From the NCBI GenBank assembly GCA_039000165.1, contig JAWBTW010000004.1:48520-62198 (forward strand): a stretch of 13,679 bases of DNA, read 5' to 3'. The translations under genes and the position numbers were made by a program. The DNA comes from Candidatus Aenigmatarchaeota archaeon. GTDB lineage: Archaea; Aenigmatarchaeota; Aenigmatarchaeia; CG10238-14; SCSR01. The notes beneath the pieces are model-generated. The model worked only from the letters and a program-made list of their open reading frames with translations. It was not told where the DNA came from and ran no database searches. Position 1 is the stretch's first letter; every line of letters starts with the position of its first letter. This document shows, in pieces, positions 1 to 13,647 of this stretch.

Positions 1-177
1 TGCTCCCGAAACTATTGGTAAAGGGGTGTCAAGCCAAGCCTCGTTTTTGTATTCTGGCAGAACAAAAAGCTCTCTTTTTACTTTAAGCATAGCCTCTATT
101 ATTTCTTTGCTCTTAAGTCTTCCTTCTTTTTTCAAGTTTTCAATAGTCTCTATCTTTTGCTTTTCTAGTTCTTCCAT
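1..177 (-). CDS. pcm: Protein-L-isoaspartate O-methyltransferase, N-terminal part (runs off window)
   Basis: Not in the ORF track. Manual translation from ATG at 177: MEELEKQKIETIENLKKEGRLKSKEIIEAMLKVKRELFVLPEYKNEAWLDTPLPIVSGA. This matches the PCMT N-terminal pattern L..G.i.s..v..Am..V.Re.Fv.....A(Y/W).D.PLPI..G. Confidence 0.9.
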   Translation of the reverse strand, partial: MEELEKQKIETIENLKKEGRLKSKEIIEAMLKVKRELFVLPEYKNEAWLDTPLPIVSGA

Positions 178-222
178 GTTTAAAATTTGGATTAAAAGAA
201 TATCAAGATAGATTATTTTAAC

Positions 223-1590
223 TTAAGGTGGTTCTGGTGGTGGAGGTGGTGGAGGTGGAGGTAATGGGGGCTGAGGAGGTTGGGGTCCTGGGGGTGACGG
301 AGGCTGTGGCTGAGGAGGTGGCGACGCACACTCACATTCTCCGTCTATAGTGGAAGGGATAGCTTCTCCTAAACAATTTTTAGTACAATACACTTCCAAA
401 GGACAATCACATTCATAACCAGGATAAACCCAATAACATTCGCCAGACCCTGGAGGAATTTCTACGCATACTTTATCTACACCAGTTGGAATGTATCTAC
501 AAGACTCTGTTTTGTAGCAATCTAATTTTCTGAGATAAGTAGTAACATCAACCTTAAAAATCAATTGCTGAGGACCTTTCGGAGTAGAAACATAATATTT
601 TGTATCATTACAACCAAAAGTTACCTTTACTGCGCCTTTTACTTCAGCAAAGTATGCGCAAGTTCCGCTACATTCTTGTAAGCTTGCACAAGGCTTAGAA
701 AATGGTATTTTAACACAATCTTTGCACATAGGTGCATCTTTCCATTCTTTACAACCTTGATAATCTTCCTCTTCAGGGCAATCGCTTTTTCCATAAAAAC
801 AGCAGGAAATACTGTAGTAACACTTGACATAAGGGTCTGAAAATGTTCTTTCTAAATTCCTTACTTCCTCTTCTGCCATTTGGATTACTGCTGACAAAAA
901 TGGCAAACAATTGTTGCATCCTCCCATACCATTACAATAGCATATTTTTGACAGGTTTCCACACATATGTTGAATATAGTTCGGCCCGTAAGTTTTTGCC
1001 CACTCGCTAAACTTTCTGTACATATACCAAAATCTAAGTAAAGAAATTCTCTCTGTTAAATCTCCTAGAGAAGTAATGTTTTCTTCACCAAGTGATATAA
1101 AAATGTTGTTTCCTAAAGCAATAGTCTCAAAACTCTCGTCAAACTTTCCACTTTCAACTTCCTGTTGAGAAACTTTAAAATCAACACAACTTACTTCTGA
1201 AAGATTAACTTTCAATATATCTGACTGGTTGAAATTTTTAATGTAATAATTAATAAAGCGTAGAGTTTCATTCGACAAGAAAAACCTAACTTCTTCCACG
1301 CTTGGCACGTCTACCTGATTACAAATCCAGCTTCTAGGATAGTTTTCCCCTGTTTGAGATACTCCTCCTCTTTTCCCAACTTCACTTACTCCTGAATGAA
1401 CAGAAAAATGAAGGGAAATTCTTTCAAAAAATTTTACATAATCAAGGTAAATGGAAGCTTTAAAATAGCTTAAACTTTTAACAATACTTTCTCTAAACTC
1501 GAAGCTAATAAAGAAGAAGAAAATTAGAGAAATAATTCCTATCGCTACCATTACGCTTAATATTAGTAAGCTAGATTGAGACTTTACCAT
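223..1590 (-). CDS. Pilin-like surface protein (KSQ leader plus hydrophobic helix) with Cys-rich C-half and poly-Pro tail
   Basis: MVKSQ followed by the hydrophobic stretch SSLLILSVMVAIGIISLIFFFFISF; six N-x-S/T sequons; dense Cys in the C-terminal half; ends PPPQPQPPSPPGPQPPQPPLPPPPPPPPEPP; overlaps the upstream stop. Confidence 0.7.
   Translation of the reverse strand: MVKSQSSLLILSVMVAIGIISLIFFFFISFEFRESIVKSLSYFKASIYLDYVKFFERISLHFSVHSGVSEVGKRGGVSQTGENYPRSWICNQVDVPSVEEVRFFLSNETLRFINYYIKNFNQSDILKVNLSEVSCVDFKVSQQEVESGKFDESFETIALGNNIFISLGEENITSLGDLTERISLLRFWYMYRKFSEWAKTYGPNYIQHMCGNLSKICYCNGMGGCNNCLPFLSAVIQMAEEEVRNLERTFSDPYVKCYYSISCCFYGKSDCPEEEDYQGCKEWKDAPMCKDCVKIPFSKPCASLQECSGTCAYFAEVKGAVKVTFGCNDTKYYVSTPKGPQQLIFKVDVTTYLRKLDCYKTESCRYIPTGVDKVCVEIPPGSGECYWVYPGYECDCPLEVYCTKNCLGEAIPSTIDGECECASPPPQPQPPSPPGPQPPQPPLPPPPPPPPPEPP
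226..320 (-). repeat. Low-complexity proline-codon tract (GGW/GGN repeats on + strand)
   Basis: ggtggttctggtggtggaggtggtggaggtggagg...; GC-rich patch in an AT-rich window, encoding the poly-Pro tail. Confidence 0.9.
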
Positions 1591-2735
1591 ACTATCAGCT
1601 CTGAGTTAATCGTTTCACCCTCATAATTAGGGTATGGAAGCTTGATGGTAAAAGTGTAAATGTTTTTAGCCGAAGTTGGAGCTTCATAACCAAAAACTAT
1701 AGGTGGTTTTGAGGGAATAATTTTTATTATTTCTTCTACGGCTTCTGCAGGATTAACTACTTCTAAATCAAAATACTTTCCTTTACACTCGGTTGAAATG
1801 TTTTTAAGAGCATCGACTACTTTTTTCACTCCGCATAAATCACAGCTTCCTTGAGTTGGCTGGGGAGGAGAATAGGTTGGGTAGTAATACTCACACCATT
1901 GTTTCCATGCATTAACACAGCTATTTACACTAAAGTTTCCTTTTAAAGTAAAGATAGAAATGTTATGTTGTTTACATGCCTTTAGCCCATTATCAAAACT
2001 ATCTTGAAAATTGCCCATTTTATCGCTATCTGTACATATACAAACATCACTTCCTGTGGTTAGTTCGTCGGTTATTATTATTATCGCAGTTAAGTTAAGT
2101 TTTTCAGCTAAGCATTTAATTCCATTACCCCAATCTTCTTCAGTTTGCTTAAGAAGTGAACAACCAGTTAATTCAAAGCAGTCATCTTTAACTTTTGTGT
2201 TTTTAAATATTTCGCAACCCCAAGAAGAGCCTGCACCTTTAAGTGTGTATATCCTTATCTTTATTTTTTTCTTTAAGGCTATTAGGTTTATTTCTTCTAT
2301 CTTATCTTTTATAACATCTATTTCATCTTTTAAACTTCCTGAAGTGTCTAATAAAAAAGCGACATTAACCCATTCTTTTGGTACATAAACGATAAACTTC
2401 CAGTTTTTATCAAAATATCTCTCAAAAAATTGTGGCAAAATTTCAGAGACATTAATTACACCATAGCCTTCTCCGTAGTTAACAGTTAAATTTTCAGAAA
2501 CTACAGCATCAGAAACTATAGAAGCTAAAGACCTTTCTGTGCCGTAAATTTTAGAAGATTGGAAAGTAATAACTGCATCGCTCACTCTATTATAAATTTG
2601 CTCTCTAGTTAGCAATTCTTTTTGAGTTTCACTTATAGAAACATAACGAAAATAAAGAATTGAAAGAAGGATGGTTACACCAACCACAAGAACAAGTATT
2701 TCTACTATTTCTAAAGTTTGAGCTTTATGAAACAA
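1584..2735 (-). CDS. Prepilin-like protein (KA|Q) with vWA/MIDAS domain, putative adhesin
   Basis: TTG start preceded by GGAGG; MFHKAQ plus hydrophobic ILVLVVGVTILLSILYF; VAFLLDTSGSL (DxSxS at 2334-2348) and IIIITDE are vWA MIDAS elements; six N-x-S/T sequons. Confidence 0.8.
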   Translation of the reverse strand: MFHKAQTLEIVEILVLVVGVTILLSILYFRYVSISETQKELLTREQIYNRVSDAVITFQSSKIYGTERSLASIVSDAVVSENLTVNYGEGYGVINVSEILPQFFERYFDKNWKFIVYVPKEWVNVAFLLDTSGSLKDEIDVIKDKIEEINLIALKKKIKIRIYTLKGAGSSWGCEIFKNTKVKDDCFELTGCSLLKQTEEDWGNGIKCLAEKLNLTAIIIITDELTTGSDVCICTDSDKMGNFQDSFDNGLKACKQHNISIFTLKGNFSVNSCVNAWKQWCEYYYPTYSPPQPTQGSCDLCGVKKVVDALKNISTECKGKYFDLEVVNPAEAVEEIIKIIPSKPPIVFGYEAPTSAKNIYTFTIKLPYPNYEGETINSELIVW

Positions 2736-3492
2736 AAACTTCTCCTCCTATTTTCTTGATTGAAATTTCGTAACTTCCTGGTTTAAGTCTATCCATATGC
2801 GTTTTGCAATAGACTTTTCTACAAACTATTTTCGAGTATAGCTCCTGACAAATTCTATCTTCTTCGGCAACCAACGGATAAGAAGTAGTTATTCTTTGCC
2901 TTAAAGAAAAACCTGTATCGCATACTCTGTTTATTAAGCCAGCAAATTCTTCAAGCTCTCCTTTCACAACTTTTAATCTTAGCATTCCTGGTTGTAAAAA
3001 TGAAGAGTTTATTCTTATAGAAACAGGGAAAGATATTTCTACGGATTTTTTAAGTGCATTTCCTTCTGAAAAATTTTGAGAACCAAACCTCCATACTCTA
3101 CTATTTTGCTTAAAATTATGTATACTAGTGTCAATTTGCGATTCAAAAGATTCTATAAAAACTTCATAACCATAAGCGTAACTTTTTGCACATTCTGGTT
3201 CAATTTCTTTATACTTGGAAGAAAATTCCAAAATTTTATTTAAATCTAAAACTTTTTGGGTAACGTTAGAGAAAGTGTAAAAAAAACTGTTTTCTTCTTG
3301 GTATGCTAAGCAAGAAGAAGATGTTGTTAAAAGTTGCGAAATAGTTGTAGCTTTTTCTAACATTTCTAAGTCAGACATAAGCTGTGCATTAGTTTGGGTT
3401 ATTGAAGTTATTTGATTGATGAAAATTGAGATTACGATTAGGATTAACACTAGAAATATTCCTTTCATTAAAAAACTAAGCTGGGCTTTCAT
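2725..3492 (-). CDS. Prepilin-like protein (KA|Q class III signal)
   Basis: MKAQLSFLMKGIFLVLILIVISIFI; AGGAG upstream of the ATG; paired Cys; sequons NVT, NFS and NSS. Confidence 0.75.
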   Translation of the reverse strand: MKAQLSFLMKGIFLVLILIVISIFINQITSITQTNAQLMSDLEMLEKATTISQLLTTSSSCLAYQEENSFFYTFSNVTQKVLDLNKILEFSSKYKEIEPECAKSYAYGYEVFIESFESQIDTSIHNFKQNSRVWRFGSQNFSEGNALKKSVEISFPVSIRINSSFLQPGMLRLKVVKGELEEFAGLINRVCDTGFSLRQRITTSYPLVAEEDRICQELYSKIVCRKVYCKTHMDRLKPGSYEISIKKIGGEVFVS

Positions 3493-4120
3493 AACTTGCT
3501 CTCCTTGACTTCCACACGATAATAAAAATTAAAGCTAAGATTATAGCCACAACAACAAAATAAATGTATATAGAAAAAGATGGTGGTTTTATTTTACAAT
3601 CTTGAGGACAATTTTCATAATTTTCTTCTAAATTTTCTTCACAAACTCCATTCCCACAATGACAATCTAATGGGCAGTTTTCATAATTTTCGTACAATAA
3701 AGAATCGCAAGCTCCATCTCTGTTACACCATGCTATTTCAAACAAGAATATTTTTTTATCTTTGTGATAGATTTCAATTGTACTTGCATCCTCAATTAAA
3801 GGAAGTTTAAGTAAAAGTGGTGAAAACTCTCTTTCAAGAAGCATCGGGCCTTTATCTGTAGTTACATAAACTTCAAATATAACTCCCCCTAAAAATCGGT
3901 CGAAAAGTACTCTACCATTTTTATCTAAAATTTTAATAGAGTAGTTTGAGGATGAAGGAAAATCCGTAGGAATTCCTGAACCCAAAGAAAACTCTTTTAA
4001 AATTACTGTATCATTTTTATAAATTTCAAGAAAGAGTATGAATAGTGTTGGTCTATCTTTAGCAAAGGATAAAGTAGAAAATAAAATTGAAAATGTTAAA
4101 AATACTGCTAAAATTTTTAT
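3476..4120 (-). CDS. Secreted, C-terminally membrane-anchored protein with two CxxxGxCx(n)ENYENCPxDC repeats; start likely at ATA 4120 rather than TTG 3985
   Basis: The frame is open upstream of 3985 and reads (I/M)KILAVFLTFSILFSTLSFA|KDRPT..., a Sec-type signal peptide. Repeats CNRDGACDSLLYENYENCPLDC and CGNGVCEENLEENYENCPQDC; C-terminal TM IYIYFVVVAIILALIFIIVW followed by KSRR. Confidence 0.75.
   Translation of the reverse strand: MKILAVFLTFSILFSTLSFAKDRPTLFILFLEIYKNDTVILKEFSLGSGIPTDFPSSSNYSIKILDKNGRVLFDRFLGGVIFEVYVTTDKGPMLLEREFSPLLLKLPLIEDASTIEIYHKDKKIFLFEIAWCNRDGACDSLLYENYENCPLDCHCGNGVCEENLEENYENCPQDCKIKPPSFSIYIYFVVVAIILALIFIIVWKSRRASYESPA
3612..3691 (-). repeat. 14-nt direct repeat ttttcataattttc (3612-3625 and 3678-3691) within the ENYEN codons
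   Basis: Two copies 66 nt (22 codons) apart, consistent with an intragenic duplication. Confidence 0.85.
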
Positions 4121-4121
4121 A

Positions 4122-5540
4122 TCAACACCCCCTAAGGTATTGTGAGATTGAAGACAATTTTCCTCCGCAATAACTTATATCACCCTTCAGCCATTTAAAC
4201 GAGTCGTCAGAAAAATATTTCTGAGTGCCATAACACATTATGTATTCAGAGTTAAAAATATTTTGGTTTGGACATTTAGCTGGTCTGGCTAAATTACATT
4301 CATGACATAATTGTAAGGTATGACCAATCTCATGAGCAACTGTTCCTGCAGGATTGGGAGGACCACCTTGCGAAGCACAAATTGATTTATACCATGTAGC
4401 ACTAGCAAAACCATCCGTACAGCTATTCCAATCCCAAGGTCCGCATCCACAAATTATTCCACCAAAAAAAGGCCAACCGACCTTGCTTATGCCGACAATT
4501 TTATCCCAATTACCAATACCTAAGACAGTATTTACACACTCGATAGCCAAAGTTACACACTCGTCACACGGTGAACTACACTTTATTTGGCATTTTGGGT
4601 TTTGAGTTGGTGTTATTATCTTTAAATCTATTCTATCTGGGCAATTCCTAAAAGGACTTTTATCAACCCAGAATGGAAATGCATGTTTTTGGACAAAATC
4701 TAAATATTCTTTCTCATCTGAGAGGGTAGCATCAAAATTTAAAGGTACGTAAACTAATTTCCATTTTCCTATACATTCATTATCATATTCATTTTCATCC
4801 ATACACCTTGCTTCTCCATTTTTTGGATTTTCGCACCATTTTGGTTTATCTCCTGGGCAGCAATGTTTCTCTGAGCAGATTGGTTTATCAGAAGGGCAGC
4901 AAATATTTCCTTGAGAATCTCTCCATAAACCAGAATCTGTAGAACCTAAACAAACACTTTCAGCAGGACAAACAGGAGGATTATCGCATTGCTTACTAGA
5001 ATTCAGATACTTTGAACAACAAGCTAAAGAATCAGGAGCGTATTCTCCGTTAGGAGCACAATTTTGATTGCAAGTATATTTATCTTTTTGACCCCAACAA
5101 AAACCTGAACAACAAGCTAAAGAAAAATAACAAGCTTCATCATTTTCCAAACATCTTCCCATAATAAAAATCTTGTTTTCCATTTTGGCTATTGTAATTT
5201 TTTTACTATCTTCAAAAAAATTGCTAACTATTTCTGGCATTTGTTTTGAAAAGCTTGCTGTTTTGTTCAAGTTTTTATCATTAACAAAAACTGTATTATT
5301 TTCTATTTTAACGTAATATCTGACTAAAGGCGGGTAATAAACAAAAACTACATCTCCACTAGTTGCTATTGCTTTGTCTATTACAGCTTCTAAATCTTTA
5401 GCAAATATTACAACAACCTCTTCCTTAGCAATTTGTGTTTGAACGTTGTAGAAAGAGAGTAGTTGATAAACAGTTATGCCAGAAGCGACCAAAACTCCAA
5501 TTATTAATATCGTTTCTGTAATCCCAAACTGAGCTTTCAT
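4122..5540 (-). CDS. Prepilin-like protein (KA|Q) with Cys-knot repeats and a C-terminal metzincin-type zinc metalloprotease domain
   Basis: MKAQFGITETILIIGVLVASGITVY; HEIGHTLQLCH (4302-4334) followed by a Met-turn-like YIMCY; Cys-rich linker. Confidence 0.8.
   Translation of the reverse strand: MKAQFGITETILIIGVLVASGITVYQLLSFYNVQTQIAKEEVVVIFAKDLEAVIDKAIATSGDVVFVYYPPLVRYYVKIENNTVFVNDKNLNKTASFSKQMPEIVSNFFEDSKKITIAKMENKIFIMGRCLENDEACYFSLACCSGFCWGQKDKYTCNQNCAPNGEYAPDSLACCSKYLNSSKQCDNPPVCPAESVCLGSTDSGLWRDSQGNICCPSDKPICSEKHCCPGDKPKWCENPKNGEARCMDENEYDNECIGKWKLVYVPLNFDATLSDEKEYLDFVQKHAFPFWVDKSPFRNCPDRIDLKIITPTQNPKCQIKCSSPCDECVTLAIECVNTVLGIGNWDKIVGISKVGWPFFGGIICGCGPWDWNSCTDGFASATWYKSICASQGGPPNPAGTVAHEIGHTLQLCHECNLARPAKCPNQNIFNSEYIMCYGTQKYFSDDSFKWLKGDISYCGGKLSSISQYLRGC
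5013..5124 (-). repeat. 19-nt direct repeat tgaacaacaagctaaagaa (5013-5031 and 5106-5124) encoding SLACCS
   Basis: Exact copies 93 nt (31 codons) apart within the protease-pilin gene. Confidence 0.9.
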
Positions 5541-6040
5541 CTAATTGTTATATTGACTTTTTCGCTGCTTATTTTTTTAATTTCTAATTCGTATTCCTTA
5601 AAAGGGGCGCTCCCCAATATTTTGCTCACCGCAACCCAAATATCCTCTTTTTCTGGCAAAACTCCTAGATAAGGCATGGTTAAGTTACAATAAAGTTTTT
5701 GACATCTCAAATAATTTTCATCCTTAAACTGCAAGCATAAGTTATAACCAGAACTTAAATTTTGATTTTTAATTAAATCAACAACTTTTGCTAGAACCTT
5801 TTTTTCGTCTGTAGAGAAAACAACTCTTGTTTGGAAATCGAACCTATAACTTTTAATGATGGAATTGTTTAACTCTTGAACGCAAATAGAGTTTATATCA
5901 GTAAAAAGGTCTGAAAACTGGGACAAACTACTTTGTCTTTGTGAAAAATTAATAGTCGAAGAAATTAAATGATAAGCTATGGATAAAATTAAAATACTTA
6001 TAACGATTCCACCAACTATATAAACCCATACATCTGGCAT
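5537..6040 (-). CDS. Pilin-like protein with N-terminal hydrophobic helix and no basic leader
   Basis: MPDVWVYIVGGIVISILILSIAYHLI; in-frame TAA immediately before the ATG; four Cys; ATGA overlap with the next gene. Confidence 0.65.
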   Translation of the reverse strand: MPDVWVYIVGGIVISILILSIAYHLISSTINFSQRQSSLSQFSDLFTDINSICVQELNNSIIKSYRFDFQTRVVFSTDEKKVLAKVVDLIKNQNLSSGYNLCLQFKDENYLRCQKLYCNLTMPYLGVLPEKEDIWVAVSKILGSAPFKEYELEIKKISSEKVNITIR

Positions 6041-6068
6041 TTAATTTAAAAATAGCTTTTTTAGAATT

Positions 6069-6476
6069 TTAACATTTTATTAGAATCTTCTGTCTCGTAA
6101 AATCGTACTCTAAGAAAACAGATGTTGCTGTAAGATCTTGACAACTCCATTCACAATTTGGATTTGAAAGGGAAAGTGGTTGGGGAAGAGATGAAACACT
6201 TCCTTTAATCACATAGCAAAGACAGGCTTGCCTTAAATTAATTCCACCTGTTTTATGCCAACAGAAATTACAATATTTTTCTAGCACATCTTTTGTTAGA
6301 GTCTCGTCGACAAGCTGAGTTTCACATTTCTCTTCTTCTTCACAAGGTGGGAAAAAACAGGGAAGCTTTATTGAACCTGCTATATTCTTAAGGTTGATAA
6401 TTATCCCTATTATAACTACAGTTGCAACTACAAGAATCAAAACTTTAAATACAGTTTCTAAAGCCATTTCTACCAT
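6069..6476 (-). CDS. Small Cys-rich pilin-like protein (CW-x13-CY family), no basic leader
   Basis: MVEMALETVFKVLILVVATVVIIGIII; CWHKTGGINLRQACLCY; TAATG coupling to the upstream gene. Confidence 0.7.
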   Translation of the reverse strand: MVEMALETVFKVLILVVATVVIIGIIINLKNIAGSIKLPCFFPPCEEEEKCETQLVDETLTKDVLEKYCNFCWHKTGGINLRQACLCYVIKGSVSSLPQPLSLSNPNCEWSCQDLTATSVFLEYDFTRQKILIKC

Positions 6477-6970
6477 TATACCACTTCAATTTTACTTGTT
6501 GTTGCATTATAATAAATTCCTACAGATTTTGGTGTTTCTATATCTCCTATTTTCCATTCAATTATATCTCTATAGTCTGGAGGTAAAAAAGAAGTTACAT
6601 CATCTTTTGTAACTTTTCCGTCAAGCCTTTTCAAAACAATTTCATAGCATGTCATATCGGTTTCTAATCCTACTTTTGCAGTAGTGCTCCAACATGCTAA
6701 GGAATATTCTGCAATCTTTCTTGAGATGAAAGTCACATTCCCACCTTCTAATATTACTGTTTGGAAACCTTGAGAAACTTCACAAAATTCAGGCAAAGAA
6801 GGTCTTAAGGAAGCTGGTAAAGGAAGGAAAGAATTTAAACCAGAAAGAAAGTTACAGTAAATTTTTCTTAGAGAAGGCGAAAATTGTAAACCGATAAAAG
6901 TGATTAAAACAGAAATTGCTACTATAGCTATTAAAATGTAAGCTACTGTGGTTAAGGCTATGCCTTTCAT
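6476..6970 (-). CDS. Prepilin (KG|I class III signal), CW-x13-CY family
   Basis: MKG|IALTTVAYILIAIVAISVLITFIG; CWSTTAKVGLETDMTCY; ATGA overlap. Confidence 0.8.
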   Translation of the reverse strand: MKGIALTTVAYILIAIVAISVLITFIGLQFSPSLRKIYCNFLSGLNSFLPLPASLRPSLPEFCEVSQGFQTVILEGGNVTFISRKIAEYSLACWSTTAKVGLETDMTCYEIVLKRLDGKVTKDDVTSFLPPDYRDIIEWKIGDIETPKSVGIYYNATTSKIEVV

Positions 6971-7350
6971 TCAAACACAACCAAGCTTATTTCTTGTCCT
7001 GTATAATTATATCTGATTTTGATAACATAACTATAGTATTTTTCTAAGGAGTTAAAGTAAGCTCTTACCTTTACTGAAGGAAAATTCTCCATTTCTGTTT
7101 TTTCTATTCTTTCAGAAGAGTTTATTCTCACTATATAACAATCATCGTTATAAATATCTTTACCAAAATCATGTTTGCTCCAACAATTTTCTATACAGTT
7201 TTTTAAAGAGCCTAAAACGCTCTGTTTATTGCCTGACAAAAATTCGTTACAAGCTTTTTGTTGAGAACTGTACAAGAATAAAACATACAAATAAACAGAA
7301 AAAACTGCCGCAATAATTAAAATCAAACCCACTAAAATCTTTTCTGCTAT
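6967..7350 (-). CDS. Small pilin-like protein, CW-x13-CY family; start possibly ATA 7350 (track: GTG 7332)
   Basis: (I/M)AEKILVGLILIIAAVFSVYLYVLFLY; CWSKHDFGKDIYNDDCY; GGTGA lies 4 nt upstream of the ATA. Confidence 0.65.
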   Translation of the reverse strand: MAEKILVGLILIIAAVFSVYLYVLFLYSSQQKACNEFLSGNKQSVLGSLKNCIENCWSKHDFGKDIYNDDCYIVRINSSERIEKTEMENFPSVKVRAYFNSLEKYYSYVIKIRYNYTGQEISLVVFE

Positions 7351-7354
7351 GTTA

Positions 7355-9424
7355 TCACCAAAGTTTAATAGATAAACCTAAACTGTAAAACATAGCTAAG
7401 CCTACGAAGGAAATAACACCATAAACTATGATAGCAACCATTAAAGTTTTTCCTATCGTGTAATCTCTTGCAACTTTATCAAAGCCATTCTCTATTCCGC
7501 TCAAAAGCATAGAAAGCAATGCTACAGTTTCAACAGTGTAAATACCTATTGCTGCTTGAAGGACTGTAAGTGGAACTACTGTTTGAAAGCTTCCAATCAA
7601 AATATCTATGAAATTTTCTCCTGAAGGTAAAAGTCCTAAACCCAAACTTTTTTGTATTTCTGCAAATCTTGTAGCAAGAATTTTTAGAATATAAATTATA
7701 AAAATCGTTAAAGAACCAATAATTCCACAAATTATTGGAACTATAAAGCTTGCCTGAAGTCTTATTGCTGAGCGCGTGTTCTCTAGCAACTCTCTTATCT
7801 TAAGCTCAATCCTATGAACATTATCTAAATAATTTGAGATTGTTTTTGCTATAACCCCAAGCAAAACAGTGCTTTTTTCAGAAGCATCTGATAAAACTCT
7901 CATTATATCTTCTATAAGTCGAGATGGATAATACCTTAAAACTCCGTGCGCTTCGTCAAACAAAGCTTTCCTGAAGGTCATTCCAAAATTTCTTATGTTT
8001 ATCAAAAGTTTTGTGAAAAAAGAATGAATAGCTCTAGTTTTCATCCCAAGTTTTTGATATTCTTCCAAACTTTTGTTTATCGCAACCTCTATAGGCATAC
8101 CTTCTGATAAAAAGTTTCCGATAGTTACTAAGCCTGTTCTAAACTCATCTTCTATATTTTTTATCTCGTTTCTTATTTTAATTCTTTGAAAACTTCTTAG
8201 ATAGAAATATGAAATTACCATAGCAGCAAAGCCTGCGGTTATAGAAAAAGTTGAGAGTAAGTTTTCTAATGTAAGGTCTGCTTCTCTTTCAAGTATTACT
8301 TTTTTATCTTCCGCTACCGAAAGAGCAGTATAAAGGTCAACAAAATGTATAATTCCATAAAACATTATGAGTAAGCCTATAAGAATCGAGAAGAAAATTA
8401 TTGGAACGTAAACCTTGGCGCTCCCTAACTTCAACACAAAAAAATCTTCTCTTGGTAGTTCAGGATGCTTAGAAATATCTGGAGAAATGAAAGCTCCTGG
8501 TCTTTTCTTTAATATCCTGTATATGAAAAAAAGGTTTAGCAGGGGTAAAAGAACTGTGTAACCTAAAATTAATTGATAAACATTTACTTGCTGGTTGAGA
8601 AAAATGGCTATCATAGGAAACATAACTATACCAATAGCTGGTAACATTATGCCAAAAATATGGATTAGAGTTAAAGGAGAAGAAATTTCTTCAACATAAC
8701 TTCTCATTCTCTCGTGAGTTGACTCAAGAATGTAATTTAAAGCTTTTATTAGAGTAGCTTCTCTTCTTTCTTCTGTAGCCTCTCTTAAAGTTCCGTACAA
8801 TAAATTTAACGAACGAACAAAATCTTCGTTCCAAATTGCCCATTTTGGCATGTAATAGCTTAAGGCTTCTTCAACTGTTGTATACTTTCCAACTTGCAAA
8901 TCCCACATAGCTTTTTTCATATCGTTTGTTATTGGCCCAGAAATGTGAGTAGTGACAAAGTTAACAGCGCCTTCAAAAGTTGGATTAAGTTTTAAATAAA
9001 TAACCATGTACAAGATTATTTTTATTGATTCATCCCCTGCCTGAATCCTAATAACTTGGGAAAGAAATGAAGGGTAAGTCAAGATGTACCAAAAGATTAT
9101 AAAAGGTAAAATTGAAAGAAAAATTAAGGTTACAAAATCTTGAATTATCAAGGAAAACAAGGCAAAAACTATAAAGGAAAGGATAAGAGCAAGGATTGAA
9201 GAAGAAAAAACTCCTTCTGGGCTTGTTACGAGAGAAGAAAATGCTATATCTGTTTTAAGTTTTTCTTCCAAACTTTTTGGAGGTTTTATCCTTAACTTTT
9301 CTCCTATTTTACAAAACTTTTCGTAAAAAGTTTGTGGTTTTCTTGTTTTTTGCTCAGCTAAAAGGAAATCCAAGTATTCCTTGGAAAAATACTTTTTTTC
9401 CTCTTCTTTTTTCTTTCTTATCAT
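7355..9424 (-). CDS. Type IV pilus/T2SS-F family membrane platform protein (TadC/FlaJ-like, two domains)
   Basis: About 690 aa with several TM clusters and two cytoplasmic T2SSF-like segments (YLKLNPTFEGAV...GPITNDMKKAMWDL...EEAL and IGNFLSEGMPIEVAI...GMTFRKALFD). ATG at 9424; the TTG at 9427 is an alternative. Confidence 0.85.
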   Translation of the reverse strand: MIRKKKEEEKKYFSKEYLDFLLAEQKTRKPQTFYEKFCKIGEKLRIKPPKSLEEKLKTDIAFSSLVTSPEGVFSSSILALILSFIVFALFSLIIQDFVTLIFLSILPFIIFWYILTYPSFLSQVIRIQAGDESIKIILYMVIYLKLNPTFEGAVNFVTTHISGPITNDMKKAMWDLQVGKYTTVEEALSYYMPKWAIWNEDFVRSLNLLYGTLREATEERREATLIKALNYILESTHERMRSYVEEISSPLTLIHIFGIMLPAIGIVMFPMIAIFLNQQVNVYQLILGYTVLLPLLNLFFIYRILKKRPGAFISPDISKHPELPREDFFVLKLGSAKVYVPIIFFSILIGLLIMFYGIIHFVDLYTALSVAEDKKVILEREADLTLENLLSTFSITAGFAAMVISYFYLRSFQRIKIRNEIKNIEDEFRTGLVTIGNFLSEGMPIEVAINKSLEEYQKLGMKTRAIHSFFTKLLINIRNFGMTFRKALFDEAHGVLRYYPSRLIEDIMRVLSDASEKSTVLLGVIAKTISNYLDNVHRIELKIRELLENTRSAIRLQASFIVPIICGIIGSLTIFIIYILKILATRFAEIQKSLGLGLLPSGENFIDILIGSFQTVVPLTVLQAAIGIYTVETVALLSMLLSGIENGFDKVARDYTIGKTLMVAIIVYGVISFVGLAMFYSLGLSIKLW

Positions 9425-9451
9425 CAATTAATTTTTGGCTTTTTCTTGAAT

Positions 9452-9478
9452 TAAATTTAAAAAAAGAAAGAAAAGAGG
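9452..9478 (-). terminator. U-rich archaeal terminator-like tract after alba
   Basis: The minus strand reads CCTCTTTTCTTTCTTTTTTTAAATTTA just after the alba stop. It may overlap a TATA-like TTTAAA about 30 nt upstream of the platform gene ATG. Confidence 0.5.
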
Positions 9479-9481
9479 ACA

Positions 9482-9772
9482 TTACTTTGCTAAAGTAATG
9501 TCTATGGTTGAAACGTTCACTTTTGTTTTGTCTTCTAGTTCTCTTTCCTCTGTTCCTATCTCTATTGATTTTATTTTTACTCCCTCGACAAACCTTCTTC
9601 TTACTATTTCTGCAACGTCTACTGCTCTACTAATAGCTTTTCCTCTTGCTTTTATGTGGACTTCTGGCTTTCCGTCAGAGAACTGAGTTATTACTCCTAG
9701 AACATAAGCCATAGAAGGTTTTCTTCCTACATAGATTACATTATCCTCAGTTTTTTCTTGCTTTTCTGCCAT
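9482..9772 (-). CDS. albA: DNA/RNA-binding protein Alba
   Basis: [21 protein letters not shown]...[25 protein letters not shown]...IEIGTE...[10 protein letters not shown] is the canonical Alba signature. Confidence 0.97.
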
Positions 9773-9779
9773 TTAAAAA

Positions 9780-9787
9780 CACCTCCT
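9780..9787 (-). promoter_or_regulatory. Shine-Dalgarno of alba
   Basis: AGGAGGTG 7 nt upstream of the ATG. Confidence 0.85.
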
Positions 9788-9834
9788 GTTTTTCTGGTTT
9801 TTTGAAAAAACTTATTTTTAATTTAGAGAAATAT

Positions 9835-9893: not shown

Positions 9894-11300
9894 ATGGTAA
9901 AATGCCCTGTTTGTGATTCAGAGGCTACCCCTTATGTAACTTCAGAAGGCGAAAGAGGGTATGTTTGCTACCATTGTGGAAGTAGATGGAAAGAAACAAA
10001 ACCTGCTAAGAAGACTTCTACACTATCCTTTTTAGGATTTGCTGGAAAAAAAGGTGAGGAAAGCCAAACAGGAATTTTTTCCACCTCTATTCTTTTGAGG
10101 TTTTTAATTTTTCTCGCTGCTCTAATAGTTTCATCTATGCTGGTTCTGTTTTCACTTTTAGGGATGATTCAAAAAGAAATTGCAAAACTCTTCCCAGATT
10201 TCCCAACCTTACAGTATCTTCCTTATGTAGTATTTTTTCTCTTAACAGCTTACGCAGCTCATAAGCTTGCGAAAAAAAGTTTTGTTAGTGGTTTAATTTA
10301 TTGTTTTATCTTAATAATCATTTTAATTCTTGGTAGCGCATTGATAATAGAGCTGCCAAAAATTTTTCCAGGTTGGGCCAATCAAACTATTATCCCTAGT
10401 GATAACAAAGACACAATACCGCAAGCTATAAAAGAAGGTGGGTATTATACTTTTAATTTTAAATGGGGTAGTGAAGAAACCGAGTTCGAAAAAAAGTTTC
10501 CAAGACCTTTCAGGAAAGATAGCGAAACAATTTATACTTACAGCTTTCCTGTTACAATAGAAAACCCAAGTAGAAAGAAGAGTATAAAAGATTTTTACTT
10601 TTTAGAAACAACTGGCTTGTACAACACTTCTGACATGCTGTTCCATAAACTTTATCCAAATTTATGCACTGAAGATAAAAAGTGTGAAATAGCTCCTTTA
10701 GATAATTTGTTAATTACCTTAGATAGTAAAGGTGAAATAAGCTACAAATTCAATACCATAAGAATTAAAGTTTATACAAGTTTGTCTTCTGCAAGTTTTG
10801 GAAACAATACTTTTGTTTTTGTTAGATCCTTAGACGATGAAAAGATTGCACCAACTTATAAGCCTTACACAGGAGAAGGGCCTATTGATATAACTGTTTA
10901 CTTTGCCCCTGTCAGGTATAACTTTGGTTATATGACTGACGAAAAAATAAGAGTTTTTATCCAACTAAGAAATAGAGGCGACGGAACAGGAAAAATTAGT
11001 AAGATATATTTAACAAGAATCGGAAGCCTAGAACTTCTTGAAAAGCCTCAAACCTGCGAAGGTGTAGGCGGAGAGTATCCTCTTTCTTCCCTAGACGAAA
11101 GGAACGAATACTTTGAATTTGTTTCACCTTGGACATTAGCCTCATCTCCCCTCGTTTTTTTCTGTGATTATAGTATACCAGAAAAAATAAGAACAGAGAA
11201 AATATCTTCTCCTTTCGAAACAGTAGCTTTTGTAGTAAGCGTTGAATACACTTATGAAAGAATGCACGAAAAGGAAGTTAGGGCTATGGTTCCAACTTAG
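9894..11300 (+). CDS. Membrane protein: N-terminal zinc ribbon, about 3 TM helices, large extracellular beta-rich domain
   Basis: CPVC-x17-CYHCGSRWKE; three hydrophobic segments; C-terminal domain with alternating hydrophobic strands (FPVTIENP, IRVFIQLRNRGDG, FVVSVEYTY) and sequons NQT, NTS and NNT. Confidence 0.7.
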   Translation: MVKCPVCDSEATPYVTSEGERGYVCYHCGSRWKETKPAKKTSTLSFLGFAGKKGEESQTGIFSTSILLRFLIFLAALIVSSMLVLFSLLGMIQKEIAKLFPDFPTLQYLPYVVFFLLTAYAAHKLAKKSFVSGLIYCFILIIILILGSALIIELPKIFPGWANQTIIPSDNKDTIPQAIKEGGYYTFNFKWGSEETEFEKKFPRPFRKDSETIYTYSFPVTIENPSRKKSIKDFYFLETTGLYNTSDMLFHKLYPNLCTEDKKCEIAPLDNLLITLDSKGEISYKFNTIRIKVYTSLSSASFGNNTFVFVRSLDDEKIAPTYKPYTGEGPIDITVYFAPVRYNFGYMTDEKIRVFIQLRNRGDGTGKISKIYLTRIGSLELLEKPQTCEGVGGEYPLSSLDERNEYFEFVSPWTLASSPLVFFCDYSIPEKIRTEKISSPFETVAFVVSVEYTYERMHEKEVRAMVPT

Positions 11301-11331
11301 GTTTTTATTTAAAGAAAATAAAATTTTTAAT

Positions 11332-12057
11332 ATGGGAAAAGGCGACATTTCTCTAACTGCTATTATTTTTATTGTTTGCGGCATAGCAGTTTTTATTTTT
11401 GCTGCTGCTTGGGTTTTTAAAGTTCCTGGACTTTTTGGTCAGCTGTTGGGTTATATACAAACTGGTTTGATAGCTGTTGGTTCAACAATTTTAGATTTTT
11501 TAATGAAGATTTTTGGAAAATACTTTAGTGCTTTTGCCACGGCTCTGGGGGTAACTTTGAATGTTATTCTCCCAACATTAACTTTACAAGCAGTCTGGCC
11601 AGCTTTGAGTAGTGCTTTGAGTAGAGGTTGGCACATCTTAACTCAAACACATTTTTATGTGGGAAAAACTTTCTTTCAATCAAACTTTTTAGGGCGATGG
11701 AAATTAAGGCTAACAACATTGTGGAAATATTTCAAATCAGGAATAAGCAGACAGGCTATTATAAGCGGTATTAAAAACTTGATTAAAGTTTCTAGTACTA
11801 TGTTTTTTGTCAGCTTAGGTGCCGAGTTAATTTTAACCCATTTAGGCGTTCCTCAATGGATAGATAGTCTGAACTTGCCTGGACAAGGCTTTACTGTAGG
11901 GGGTTTTTCTTGGTCCTGGGGAAGTGCAATTACAGCTGCTGGAAGCACAGCTTTAGGTTTAGGTGTAGTAGCAGCGCTAAACTGGTGGAACCCTGTTGGT
12001 TGGGCAGCTGGTCTTATGATTGCTGGTTCATTCATAATAGGTGGTTTCATTCATTAG
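11332..12057 (+). CDS. Prepilin-like (KG|D) hydrophobic protein with amphipathic helices and a Gly-rich C-terminal hairpin; paralog 1
   Basis: True start probably ATG 11332 (MGKG|DISLTAIIFIVCGIAVFIFAAAW), which avoids overlap with the upstream gene; C-terminal AAGSTALGLGVVAALNWWNPVGWAAGLMIAGSFIIGGFIH. Confidence 0.75.
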   Translation: MGKGDISLTAIIFIVCGIAVFIFAAAWVFKVPGLFGQLLGYIQTGLIAVGSTILDFLMKIFGKYFSAFATALGVTLNVILPTLTLQAVWPALSSALSRGWHILTQTHFYVGKTFFQSNFLGRWKLRLTTLWKYFKSGISRQAIISGIKNLIKVSSTMFFVSLGAELILTHLGVPQWIDSLNLPGQGFTVGGFSWSWGSAITAAGSTALGLGVVAALNWWNPVGWAAGLMIAGSFIIGGFIH

Positions 12058-12841
12058 AGAAAAAAAATTTAACAAAGGTGACGTTAGCCTAGCAGCAATA
12101 ATAGCACTTTTTCTCGGAATTTTAATTTTTGTTGTCATGGTTGGTTATGCTTTCAAAATTCCTGGTTTAGGAGGACAGTATCTTGGGTATGTTTACAATG
12201 CTTTAAGCTTCGCTCTTTCAACTATTTGGGATTTTCTAGGAAAATTAATTGCACCTTTTATTAAAGAAGTACAAAAAGCTACTATCTGGGCTTTCTTAAC
12301 TGTAGGTATAACTCTTCCAGCTGTTATATCAATCAAGTATCTTTTAACTCACGGAGTTACACTCACATGGAAACAGGCTGTAAGAAATTTGTTCAAAATA
12401 TCTTTTTGGAAAGATGTAGGAAGTGCAGTAAAATCAAGTATTTCACACTGGTGGAGTAATGTAAAAGCTGCTTTTTCTTCAGGAATTTGGAAAGGAATAA
12501 AGTATGTAGGAAAATCTTTAATTACAAACGCCTGGAAAATAGCAACAGGTTTTGTCGTCGGCATGTGTGTTGAAATAGGAGTAACTTTCGCCTTAGATTA
12601 TCTGAGTTACAGCTTAGTTGGAAAAGGTTTTGCTCAAGCTATAAATGATATACTACCAGGAGGTGGAGTTTATCAAATTGGCGCAGTAAGTATTTCAGTA
12701 GGGCATGGCGTACAATCAGCAATCTCAGGAGCTGCTTCAGGTGCAGTGATAGGTGCTATGTTTGGTGGACCAATTGGCGCTGTAGTAGGTGCTGCTATTG
12801 GTGGGTTGGTTGGGCTCTTTACTGGCCTTTTCTTCCATTAG
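12041..12841 (+). CDS. Prepilin-like (KG|D) hydrophobic protein with glycine zipper; paralog 2
   Basis: KKFNKG|DVSLAAIIALFLGILIFVVMVG; FKIPGLGGQYLGY aligns with FKVPGLFGQLLGY of paralog 1; C-terminal GAASGAVIGAMFGGPIGAVVGAAIGGLVGLFTG. Confidence 0.78.
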   Translation: MVSFIREKKFNKGDVSLAAIIALFLGILIFVVMVGYAFKIPGLGGQYLGYVYNALSFALSTIWDFLGKLIAPFIKEVQKATIWAFLTVGITLPAVISIKYLLTHGVTLTWKQAVRNLFKISFWKDVGSAVKSSISHWWSNVKAAFSSGIWKGIKYVGKSLITNAWKIATGFVVGMCVEIGVTFALDYLSYSLVGKGFAQAINDILPGGGVYQIGAVSISVGHGVQSAISGAASGAVIGAMFGGPIGAVVGAAIGGLVGLFTGLFFH

Positions 12842-12872: not shown

Positions 12873-13304
12873 ATGAAAGGAGATATGCCTATAGCTTATG
12901 TAGTTGCGTTGATACTAGGAATTGCAGTACTAGTGGCTTTAGGCTATTGGTTCTACACAACCGGAGGAAGACTAGGTCCTACCATATCGCAACAAGATTG
13001 CACAAGAGCTTTCCAACAACATTGTGAGGAATGGAAAAACTCAGGGTTTCTTGACCCAATGCCAGTAAAAGTAAGATGTACTGACTCGACAGCAAGAGCA
13101 TTGAAAAATGTTAACTACGGAGATGAGAGGGGAGACGCATGCCAGATATGTGGTTGTCAAGATACAACAAATTGTGGTGGCTGCTCTGGTAATTGGGCAA
13201 CCGTATACCTTGATGTCTCATCAGGCCAATGGTGGAATTATATAGCTCCAGGCTGTGCAGAAGCCTACGGAATTGAGATTAAGACTACATCAGACTGCGG
13301 ATAG
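12873..13304 (+). CDS. Prepilin (KG|D) with Cys-rich globular head
   Basis: MKG|DMPIAYVVALILGIAVLVALGYWFY; CTRAFQQHCEEW motif; ten Cys. Confidence 0.8.
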   Translation: MKGDMPIAYVVALILGIAVLVALGYWFYTTGGRLGPTISQQDCTRAFQQHCEEWKNSGFLDPMPVKVRCTDSTARALKNVNYGDERGDACQICGCQDTTNCGGCSGNWATVYLDVSSGQWWNYIAPGCAEAYGIEIKTTSDCG

Positions 13305-13326
13305 ACAAACTCAAATGTGAAAAACA

Positions 13327-13647
13327 ATGAAAAAAGGCTTGGCAATTCCAATCTATGTAGTAGTGTTAGTTCTATTGATAGGAATTATTGCAGTCGCGGC
13401 TATAACCATAATAATGAGCTGGCTTTCAGCAAACCGATGTATTGGTTTACAATCTTCTTGTGCTAATGCAAGAATCATGTTTTGTGAAAAATGGCATGAC
13501 CAATGTAGTGATTTTAACTGTAATGAACCAGAATGGGATAGTAGTTTAAAAACATGCGAACTAACAGAAACAGGAAAAGGAACTCAAGAAGTAGCTTGTA
13601 CAAAACCTAATGCAACAGAATGTTCGGAAGCCTTTAAGGAAGATTGA
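13327..13647 (+). CDS. Prepilin (KG|L) with Cys-rich head
   Basis: MKKG|LAIPIYVVVLVLLIGIIAVAAITII; CANARIMFCEKW motif; eight Cys. Confidence 0.8.
   Translation: MKKGLAIPIYVVVLVLLIGIIAVAAITIIMSWLSANRCIGLQSSCANARIMFCEKWHDQCSDFNCNEPEWDSSLKTCELTETGKGTQEVACTKPNATECSEAFKED

Follow-up and report, generated by a model that had tools for sequence, protein, structure and literature searches.

What is a peptidase doing on a pilin? The question is raised by one gene in a stretch of DNA of 13,679 nucleotides (the window) from Candidatus Aenigmatarchaeota archaeon (GenBank assembly GCA_039000165.1, contig JAWBTW010000004.1, positions 48,520 to 62,198 of the forward strand; coordinates below are those of the window). 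The gene encodes a protein of 472 amino acids with the N-terminus MKAQFGITETILIIGVLVASG, and its sequence and a structural model support an architecture of prepilin leader, pilin-sized domain, Cys-rich stalk and metzincin-like peptidase head. The leader, pilin module and stalk form a carrier which, across related proteins, bears interchangeable metzincin, gingipain-like C25, papain C1 or unassigned Cys-rich heads. The metzincin-like head is exchanged along with the beginning of the next gene, whose product (the partner) is predicted to sit on the head's catalytic centre. We lean towards the view that the protein is a modular pilin, probably a minor or tip subunit, that displays an exchangeable peptidase which is held in check by its cognate partner.

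The carrier and its heads

The gene and its modules are:

4122..5540, minus strand: the whole gene, for a modular pilin-like protein of 472 amino acids (from the open reading frames and their translation; stop codon at 4122-4124)
5157..5540, minus strand: pilin module, amino acids 1-128 (leader MKA, then Q; about 20 hydrophobic residues; a long alpha-1 helix; a beta-sheet)
4773..5156, minus strand: disulfide-rich stalk, amino acids 129-256, ending at the invariant C256 (from the Cys count, conservation and model confidence)
4125..4772, minus strand: metzincin-like peptidase head, amino acids 257-472, or 216 amino acids (from sub-threshold Reprolysin matches, a profile search and Foldseek)
4302..4334, minus strand: zinc motif H403-E404-I-G-H407-T-L-Q410-L-C-H413 (HEIGHTLQLCH, amino acids 403-413; from the sequence)
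4230..4244, minus strand: Met-turn Y433-I-M435-C-Y437 (YIMCY, amino acids 433-437; from the sequence)

On the plus strand, the translation of 4122..5540 has stops throughout.

An earlier reading of this DNA from its letters alone (the sequence-only reading) had proposed a KA/Q prepilin leader, a pilin-sized domain and a Cys-rich stalk in front of the peptidase motifs, and all three are borne out. The protein starts with MKA, followed by QFGITETILIIGVLVASGITVY: a class-III (prepilin-type) leader and then a hydrophobic stretch. At this junction, homologues of the carrier have K, then A or G, and then I, V or Q. Gln at the +1 position recalls the Epd/EppA-type pilins of methanogens. System-1, Epd-like pilins have been assigned to 1990 genomes of DPANN archaea (PMC13705601; this and the other papers below are cited for the parts of their text available to us).

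AlphaFold2 with the single sequence gave an unusable model of the full protein (mean predicted local distance difference test, or pLDDT, of 34.6), and we used instead a model based on an alignment of 100 sequences (A3; mean pLDDT 85.3, predicted template modelling score 0.58), in which only amino acids 365-390 and 461-472 are poorly defined. Amino acids 1-128 are confidently modelled as the lollipop fold of a pilin: a 55-residue helix (5-59) is followed by strands (64-127), and from residue 11 on, blocks of 10 residues have pLDDT of 90-98. No curated pilin model matched the protein or its homologues at the cut-off; for the pilin module, NCBIfam gave the minor pilin ComGD at E = 0.21 (12 bits versus a cut-off of 70), with E = 0.006-0.05 for homologues. 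The pilin module has no Cys, the stalk has 20, and the head has 16. The stalk has no Pfam family, but its blocks are modelled with pLDDT of 88-96, and 17 of its 20 Cys columns, including C256, are invariant across 24 carrier proteins.

These 24 carrier clusters (the window's own and 23 others) came from a word-index search, and a query limited to amino acids 1-250 returned the same 24. Those that are named by a source are all from Aenigmatarchaeota. The leader, the pilin module and the stalk are common to all 24, and the proteins diverge after C256. The heads are of the HExxH type in 13 (with several subtypes), Peptidase_C25 in four, Peptidase_C1 in two (E = 3.7e-43 and 8.1e-25), and Cys-rich without a family in five; one of these five (P0019) has a sub-threshold match to Transglut_core (E = 0.0075). 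(The Pfam scan covered 19 of the 23 homologues, and the family of P0016 is from a precomputed annotation.) A scan of species-representative genomes found 12 loci in 11 genomes, one of which has two loci while the other 10 have one. All 12 lie in metagenome-assembled genomes titled Aenigmatarchaeota or uncultured archaeon, and the gene order around them is conserved.

A divergent metzincin-like head

Reprolysin-type models from Pfam match amino acids 373-448 of the window protein, all below their cut-offs, with E from 1.7e-4 to 0.059: Reprolysin_5 at 22.3 bits versus a cut-off of 27 (E = 1.7e-4), Reprolysin_4 at 20.4 versus 22, Reprolysin_2 at 16.1 versus 27, and Reprolysin_3 at 14.3 versus 22.4. 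NCBIfam has no family for the protein, and phmmer against the sequences in PDB gave just a chance match to an antibody (E = 0.1). A profile of twelve heads (alignment A1, the window's head and homologues) had 22 weak matches in PDB, the best at E = 0.017, all of them metzincin-type by name; they include snapalysin, snake-venom and ADAM proteinases, TACE, ADAMTS-5, archaemetzincin, and the structures 3P1V and 4DF9. With the whole 472-residue model as the query, the best Foldseek match in PDB was ADAM-8 (4dd8; E = 0.014, probability 0.95, template modelling (TM) score by target 0.46). Next came snake-venom proteinases, ADAM33, ADAMTS-5, archaemetzincin, mirolysin and MMP-12; nearly all of the top matches are metzincin catalytic domains. 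In the model, helix 397-408 spans the HExxH and helix 445-454 follows the Met-turn. On the basis of these matches, the invariant motif and the Met-turn, we assign the head to the metzincin clan as a divergent member, nearest to the adamalysin/reprolysin group and from a large and mostly unannotated family.

The size of the family is apparent from a search with the A1 profile against 1.84 billion cluster representatives, which gave 626 matches at E ≤ 1e-3, 215 at ≤ 1e-10, and 29 at ≤ 1e-30. The best 150 of the 626 comprise 147 new proteins, of which 144 have HExxH. We ran Pfam on 98 of the 147: 16 have a Reprolysin-type match at E ≤ 1e-4, 8 of those reach the curated cut-off, and in most of the 98 the head region has no Pfam family at all.

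The head shares with the adamalysins/reprolysins (MEROPS M12B; Reprolysin_2 to _5) the pattern HExxHxxxxxH, the Met-turn, and apparently the layout of the catalytic domain, but it scores below the cut-offs and has Gln for Gly, Glu after the third His, and Tyr after the Met-turn (IMCY). The Glu after the third His and the Tyr after the Met-turn are known as traits of astacins (HExxHxxGFxHE, SxMHY) rather than of adamalysins. We also considered the archaemetzincins (M54), whose motif is HExxHxxGxxHCx4CxMx17CxxC (PMC3427221). The corresponding sequence in the window is LCHECNLARPAKC, and neither the spacing nor the Cys after the third His fits; also, the A1 profile matches the archaemetzincin structure 2x7m at only E = 0.087. 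Membership in the igalysins is ruled out by the spacing of the motif.

HEIGHTLQLCH and the Met-turn-like YIMCY, which the sequence-only reading had pointed out, are both present on the minus-strand open reading frame, and HEIGHTLQLCH is the sole HExxH across the six reading frames of the window. The reading was also right that the three His and the catalytic Glu are kept (H403, E404, H407 and H413), and the motif is no chance match: among the 89 metzincin-type rows of alignment A3, which we used to count conservation, H403, E404 and H407 are each invariant (89/89). At the position of the third ligand (413), 53 rows have D, 28 have H, 5 have G and 3 have E. The next residue, E414, is kept in 66 rows, and in the aligned columns M435 is found in 75 and Tyr at position 437 in 34.

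That Gln replaces the Gly of the motif is literally true, but to present it as a special variant of the zinc motif was an overstatement. Gln is found at position 410 only in the window's row, yet the position varies across the family (the six commonest residues are G in 72 rows, K in 6, N in 3, D in 2, and Q and M in 1 each), and the two closest heads of the same type have N (P0004) and K (P0009). The wider family is similar. Reading the last HExxH of each of the 144 representatives, we found at the Gly site G in 120, K in 7, N in 5, Y in 4, D in 2, S in 2 and four singletons, and at the third-ligand site D in 85, H in 41, E in 9, G in 6 and C in 3. The published clan motif is HExxHxxG/NxxH/D, with Asn in the lower pappalysins and Asp in the snapalysins and thuringilysins (PMC12237041). 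The window head has neither Gly nor Asn at the first of these variable positions (Q410) and has one of the two expected ligands at the second (H413). Its family resembles the lower pappalysin and snapalysin/thuringilysin types, in which a non-Gly residue (Asn) and an Asp ligand are allowed, in its mixture of Asp and His as the third ligand and in having N, K, D or Q at the Gly site in 12 of the 89 rows. It differs in that Gln at the Gly site is not mentioned in the available part of PMC12237041, and the window head has no significant sequence match to these types. Because position 410 varies in the family and Asn is already documented in the clan motif, the change to Gln is a minor trait that matters little; Asn, Asp, Lys and Gln could take the backbone conformation that is usually held by Gly.

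With its catalytic Glu, all three zinc-ligand positions and its Met-turn retained, the head is most likely an active zinc endopeptidase that is displayed away from the cell. The degradation of S-layers or the processing of pili by the head, both raised in the sequence-only reading, are pure conjecture.

Metzincin heads are found on other carriers as well. At least 19 of the 147 representatives have class-III-like N-termini; this is a lower bound from a strict pattern of our own, and about a dozen more are visible by eye. In P0027, which is from another lineage, a homologue of the 167-residue upstream neighbour in the window (5537-6040, minus strand; 42% identity over 167 amino acids, E = 9e-46) is fused to a metzincin head, which implies that a second protein of the operon can serve as a head carrier. 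Another protein with a class-III-like leader (P0106) has an SLT lytic-transglycosylase domain (E = 2.8e-11) and a Reprolysin_5-like head just below the cut-off, which makes it a two-enzyme modular pilin-like protein. P0135, which was outside the Pfam scan, shares the N-terminus of P0106 and has HExxH.

The head-plus-partner cassette

A comparison with a sister locus (L001) delimits what is exchanged:

3672..4771, minus strand: exchanged cassette of 1.1 kb, comprising the head, the intergenic DNA and approximately the first 149 codons of the partner gene (from blastn against L001)
3476..4120, minus strand: partner gene, encoding a signal peptide, a beta-rich domain of about 110 amino acids, CPxDC-type Cys repeats and a C-terminal membrane anchor

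In blastn, positions 1-3671 of the window match L001 at 98.8% identity, 4772-6069 at 92.0%, and 6069-9799 at 82%, while 3672-4771 has no match in L001. The breakpoints are thus at 3671/3672 and 4771/4772. On the side of the head, the edge is the first base past the codon for C256; in the partner gene, it lies near codon 149, inside the first CPxDC motif. Between the window and L001, the carriers are 94% identical, the heads 29%, the N-terminal domains of the partners 25%, and the C-terminal parts of the partners 81%. L001 and another locus (L006) show the reverse pattern: 47% for the carrier, 76% for the head, 73% for the partner's N-terminal domain and 49% for its C-terminal part. Across the 28 pairs of the eight metzincin loci, the divergence of the head tracks that of the partner's N-terminal domain (Mantel r = 0.78, p = 0.0002) but not that of the carrier (r = -0.04), and the carrier tracks the partner's C-terminal part (r = 0.69, p = 0.0125). 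No orphan silent head cassettes were found in the window, which has one HExxH in six frames.

The gene after other types of heads differs. The gene that follows a papain-type head (locus L007; 2453-3139 of that locus) codes for a membrane-anchored protein in which two DUF333 domains (E = 1.9e-18) are combined with a Cys-rich spacer. Should the partner indeed be an inhibitor, DUF333 would be a candidate binder of papain-family peptidases. At two C25 loci (L009 and L010), the downstream gene encodes an unrelated protein that is anchored at its N-terminus.

The partners that are associated with metzincin heads form one homologous family and differ mainly in one domain. The window's partner has no Pfam or NCBIfam family. 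The Atlas model of a 169-residue form of it resembles, among others, parts of the M66 and M64 peptidase clusters, with TM scores of 0.34-0.44, all under 0.5. Its reading frame is open through the signal peptide KILAVFLTFSILFSTLSFA but has no preceding ATG, GTG or TTG (window 4114-4125). The only plausible start is ATA at 4118-4120, two bases past the upstream stop; the open reading frame finder begins at the TTG at 3985. Partner orthologues in other loci start with an ATG that overlaps the upstream stop. The missing start could be a non-canonical start, a start lost to a point mutation, or a sequencing error. We also considered a frameshifted GTG or TTG start, but that frame stops at once.

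Since the co-variation of head and partner gave a specific reason to ask if they bind, we modelled the head (A1) with zinc and with amino acids 20-155 of the partner (A4) in three scored runs. The interaction prediction score from aligned errors (ipSAE) was 0.89, 0.90 and 0.90, while the best control scored 0.00. The runs thus passed the mark for this score, to which 116 of 157 solved complexes and 2 of 215 mismatched pairs came up; these counts are only roughly valid for runs that, like ours, used custom alignments and carried a zinc along. The runs agree in at least 91% of contacts, and the pLDDT of the partner is at least 81. On the head, the confidently predicted interface includes the equivalents of T400, H403, E404, H407, H413 and Y437 as well as 360-379, a stretch which is disordered in the model of the monomer; on the partner, it includes 83-94 and 96-102. 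The models support binding, with the partner's domain predicted to sit over the catalytic centre of the head, and as the interface is the cleft face, a blocking, prodomain-like role for the partner is favoured.

We propose that the prepilin-type N-terminus and pilin fold serve as the carrier, that the rigid, disulfide-rich stalk serves as a spacer, and that the adamalysin-like metzincin is the working head. The protein would have its place either on a pilus, where it is probably a minor or tip subunit, or in the membrane, held there by the alpha-1 helix. The head is an exchangeable cassette whose exchange unit takes in the N-terminal domain of the next gene's product. The partner would be a cognate factor for latency or self-protection, in effect a prodomain or inhibitor that acts in trans; as long as the two proteins are in the producer's membrane, it would prevent the peptidase from acting. 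The target could be a surface protein of a host or neighbour, or a protein from the environment.

Several points weigh against this proposal. The head reaches the cut-off of no curated Pfam family, it lacks the canonical Gly of the zinc motif, and Foldseek gave no match at E ≤ 0.001, with TM scores by target under 0.5 throughout. Profiles of the carrier (A2) and the partner (A4) had no meaningful match among PDB sequences. The co-variation across eight loci reflects few independent exchange events. Without a canonical start, the partner may be poorly made in this organism. A beta-sandwich that wraps a metzincin can be needed for function rather than inhibit, as in the IgAse discussed below, and because solved metzincins with a packed beta-sandwich exist, the high score of the complex could partly reflect likeness to solved structures. 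Neither a prepilin peptidase nor an assembly ATPase was found, be it in the window with Pfam and NCBIfam or in the 21-kb sister locus (which agrees with the scattered organisation reported for DPANN archaea; PMC13705601), and the only sign of a platform protein is a language-model look-alike.

A more elaborate version of the proposal is possible but rather doubtful. The locus could be a pilus-borne arsenal of peptidases that switches cassettes and has a mechanical safety catch: the membrane-tethered partner would plug the active site while the modular pilin waits in the membrane, polymerisation of the pilus would pull the head off its partner, so that the peptidase becomes active only at a distance, and it would act on the envelope of a host or neighbour that the DPANN cell must breach or graze. 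If so, the swapping of matched pairs of head and plug between strains would reflect an arms race with the surface proteins of hosts.

The protein might instead be a surface enzyme akin to the bindosome, in which the class-III leader, as in archaeal substrate-binding proteins that have one, just anchors a peptidase in the membrane or in a small assembly at the surface, and the peptidase scavenges peptides for an auxotrophic archaeon with a small genome; the variety of heads would then correspond to different food proteins. According to a 2026 survey, thousands of archaeal proteins combine class-III leaders with non-pilin functional domains, and it is proposed there that they equip the machineries of type-4 filaments for scavenging (PMC13705601). 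The lack of an assembly ATPase in the window, and the metzincin heads on other membrane-anchored carriers (P0027 and the at least 19 of 147 representatives mentioned above), would fit. However, the gene shares its operon with other pilin-like genes, downstream of one for a probable platform protein, and a full pilin fold is modelled rather than a bare anchor helix. Furthermore, scavenging hardly explains why a partner that is predicted to lie over the active site would be swapped along with the head. We consider this explanation unlikely, though not far-fetched.

We give a similarly limited chance to the idea that the partner is no inhibitor but an accessory or wrapping domain, supplied in trans, that helps the head to fold, stabilises it or recruits its substrate. 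IgAse cannot fold or function without the fibronectin-type domain that envelops its metzincin domain, and in the M64-like structures 3P1V and 4DF9 a beta-sandwich accompanies the catalytic domain (PMC12237041). The Atlas model of the partner weakly resembles parts of the M66 and M64 clusters (TM 0.37-0.40), and co-variation would be expected of any tight complex. But those similarities are below the usual level for proteins of the same fold, and the predicted interface includes zinc ligands, catalytic residues and the Tyr after the Met-turn, which is the cleft face and not the back of the domain.

The pattern of a constant N-terminus and a variable C-terminus (24 carriers with at least four classes of heads), with an adjacent gene that co-varies and encodes a protein predicted to lie on the catalytic centre, also brings to mind polymorphic toxins, used in contact-dependent competition or against a host: the carrier would bring one of a range of toxic peptidases to another cell, and kin would be protected by an immunity protein, the product of the downstream gene. 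Polymorphic toxin loci have been described in archaea (PMC6393860). For the locus here, this reading seems quite improbable. The kinship of the metzincin-associated partners, which differ mainly in one domain, does not suit it, nor does the lack of orphan head cassettes in the window or the single locus in 10 of 11 genomes. Polymorphic toxin systems typically carry nucleases or deaminases, while the heads here are disulfide-rich peptidases of an extracellular type.

Two further ideas are very improbable. A peptidase that maintains the pilus by trimming or degrading the producer's own pilins or surface proteins should, as a housekeeping enzyme, conserve one catalytic type, while four classes of peptidases are swapped on nearly identical carriers. 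And a catalytically dead adhesin that keeps the metzincin fold as a binding module would account for the missing Gly and for a family member (P0023) with Gly at the third-ligand position, but the window protein keeps the catalytic Glu, the three ligand positions and the Met-turn, all strongly conserved in the family.

Neighbouring genes and related systems

The window is AT-rich (GC 0.30-0.41), and its left two thirds are mostly one array of minus-strand genes, in which the pilin-protease gene is the sixth. The other members of interest are:

7355..9427, minus strand: polytopic membrane protein of 690 amino acids, at the start of the array (no Pfam or NCBIfam match; language-model look-alikes)
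5537..7332, minus strand: four small membrane-anchored proteins, between the candidate platform gene (7355..9427) and the pilin-protease gene (from translations)
2725-3492, minus strand: protein with the class-III-like leader MKAQLSF (from translation)
1584-2735, minus strand: protein of 383 amino acids with the class-III-like leader MFHKAQTLE, vWA-like, with a DTSGS (DxSxS) motif (VWA_4 at E = 0.05, below the cut-off)
223-1590, minus strand: Cys-rich protein of 455 amino acids with the class-III-like leader MVKSQSS and a Pro-rich tail (from translation)

By language model, the 690-residue protein scores 0.97 to clusters in which about 21-22% of members have PF00482 (T2SSF), a lead towards a platform protein of the FlaJ/TadC/GspF type. 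The leader-bearing genes recur in the same order in related loci. The 1584-2735 protein may be a second modular pilin, analogous to the vWA-bearing pilins of bacteria. The last 45 or so residues of the 223-1590 protein are nearly all Pro, Gln, Ser, Gly, Leu or Glu, with Pro in the majority; in L001, L008 and L011, too, the operon ends with a conserved version of this protein. L001 has an extra pilin-like gene (8905-9474; 189 amino acids) between its homologues of 5537-6040 and 6069-6476, where the window has a spacer of 28 bp (6040-6069).

Outside the array's pilin-like genes, 9482-9772 (minus strand) encodes an Alba DNA/RNA-binding protein (TIGR00285, E = 2.5e-37), which, with the names of the homologues, identifies the window as archaeal. 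On the plus strand, 11242-12841 encodes two adjacent paralogous membrane proteins of about 270 amino acids each, the second of which has a C-terminal glycine zipper (Gly-zipper_YMGG, E = 2.5e-7). They are followed at 12873-13647 by two small Cys-rich proteins with pilin-like hydrophobic N-termini.

Serralysin/AprA and its inhibitor Inh/AprI are a secreted metzincin and a cognate inhibitor that is encoded by an adjacent gene. Our locus is similar in that a small beta-rich protein is encoded beside a metzincin, and we propose that it blocks the active site and protects the producer. It differs in that the partner is anchored in the membrane, has a Cys-rich spacer and has no similarity that we could find to solved proteins, and its binding is a prediction.

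Modular type IV pilins are known from bacteria, including PilB and PilC of Streptococcus sanguinis, and some are predicted to carry peptidase modules (S74, M26) (Raynaud et al. 2021, PMC8179133). As in PilB and PilC, a class-III leader and pilin module are fused here, via a linker, to a functional module; in the bacterial proteins this module is proposed to be exposed at the tip of the pilus (PMC8179133). There are vWA-bearing pilins in bacteria, and the pilin-like protein at 1584-2735 has a vWA-like region. In contrast to these pilins, the window protein is archaeal (DPANN) and has a long stalk with 20 Cys and a metzincin of an unannotated family. Also, four classes of peptidases are exchanged on one carrier, along with part of the neighbouring gene. 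The available text of PMC8179133 has none of these features.

In archaea, proteins with class-III leaders and functional domains have been discussed as binding proteins. They share with the window protein a prepilin-type leader and a non-pilin functional domain at the C-terminus, and they are proposed to functionalise the machineries of type-4 filaments (PMC13705601). In the window, by contrast, a peptidase is the cargo, and it is encoded inside a pilin operon; the words protease, metalloprotease, hydrolase and modular are absent from the main text of PMC13705601. Transglutaminase-family surface peptidases, whose role is unknown, have been reported beside archaeal pilus loci (PMC4858521).

Our literature search, which covered papers that can be read without a subscription, found no description of a pilin-borne metzincin or of exchangeable peptidase heads in archaea. 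Modular pilins, metzincins and polymorphic effector-partner cassettes are each of a kind already known. What appears to be new is one carrier with interchangeable peptidase heads and a co-swapped partner that is predicted to lie over the active site.

Because the heads and their partners are small, separable domains, recombinant proteins would suffice to test for activity, inhibition and specificity, and the organism need not be cultivated. If our proposal is correct, it would extend the idea of modular pilins from bacterial adhesins to archaeal enzymes, and it would define a large family of metzincins (626 cluster representatives), most of which goes unrecognised by current domain libraries. 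Contact with other cells is essential to DPANN archaea, and the molecules at that interface are mostly unknown. A carrier of pilin and stalk with interchangeable peptidases and matched partners is a concrete and testable candidate for a tool that works there.

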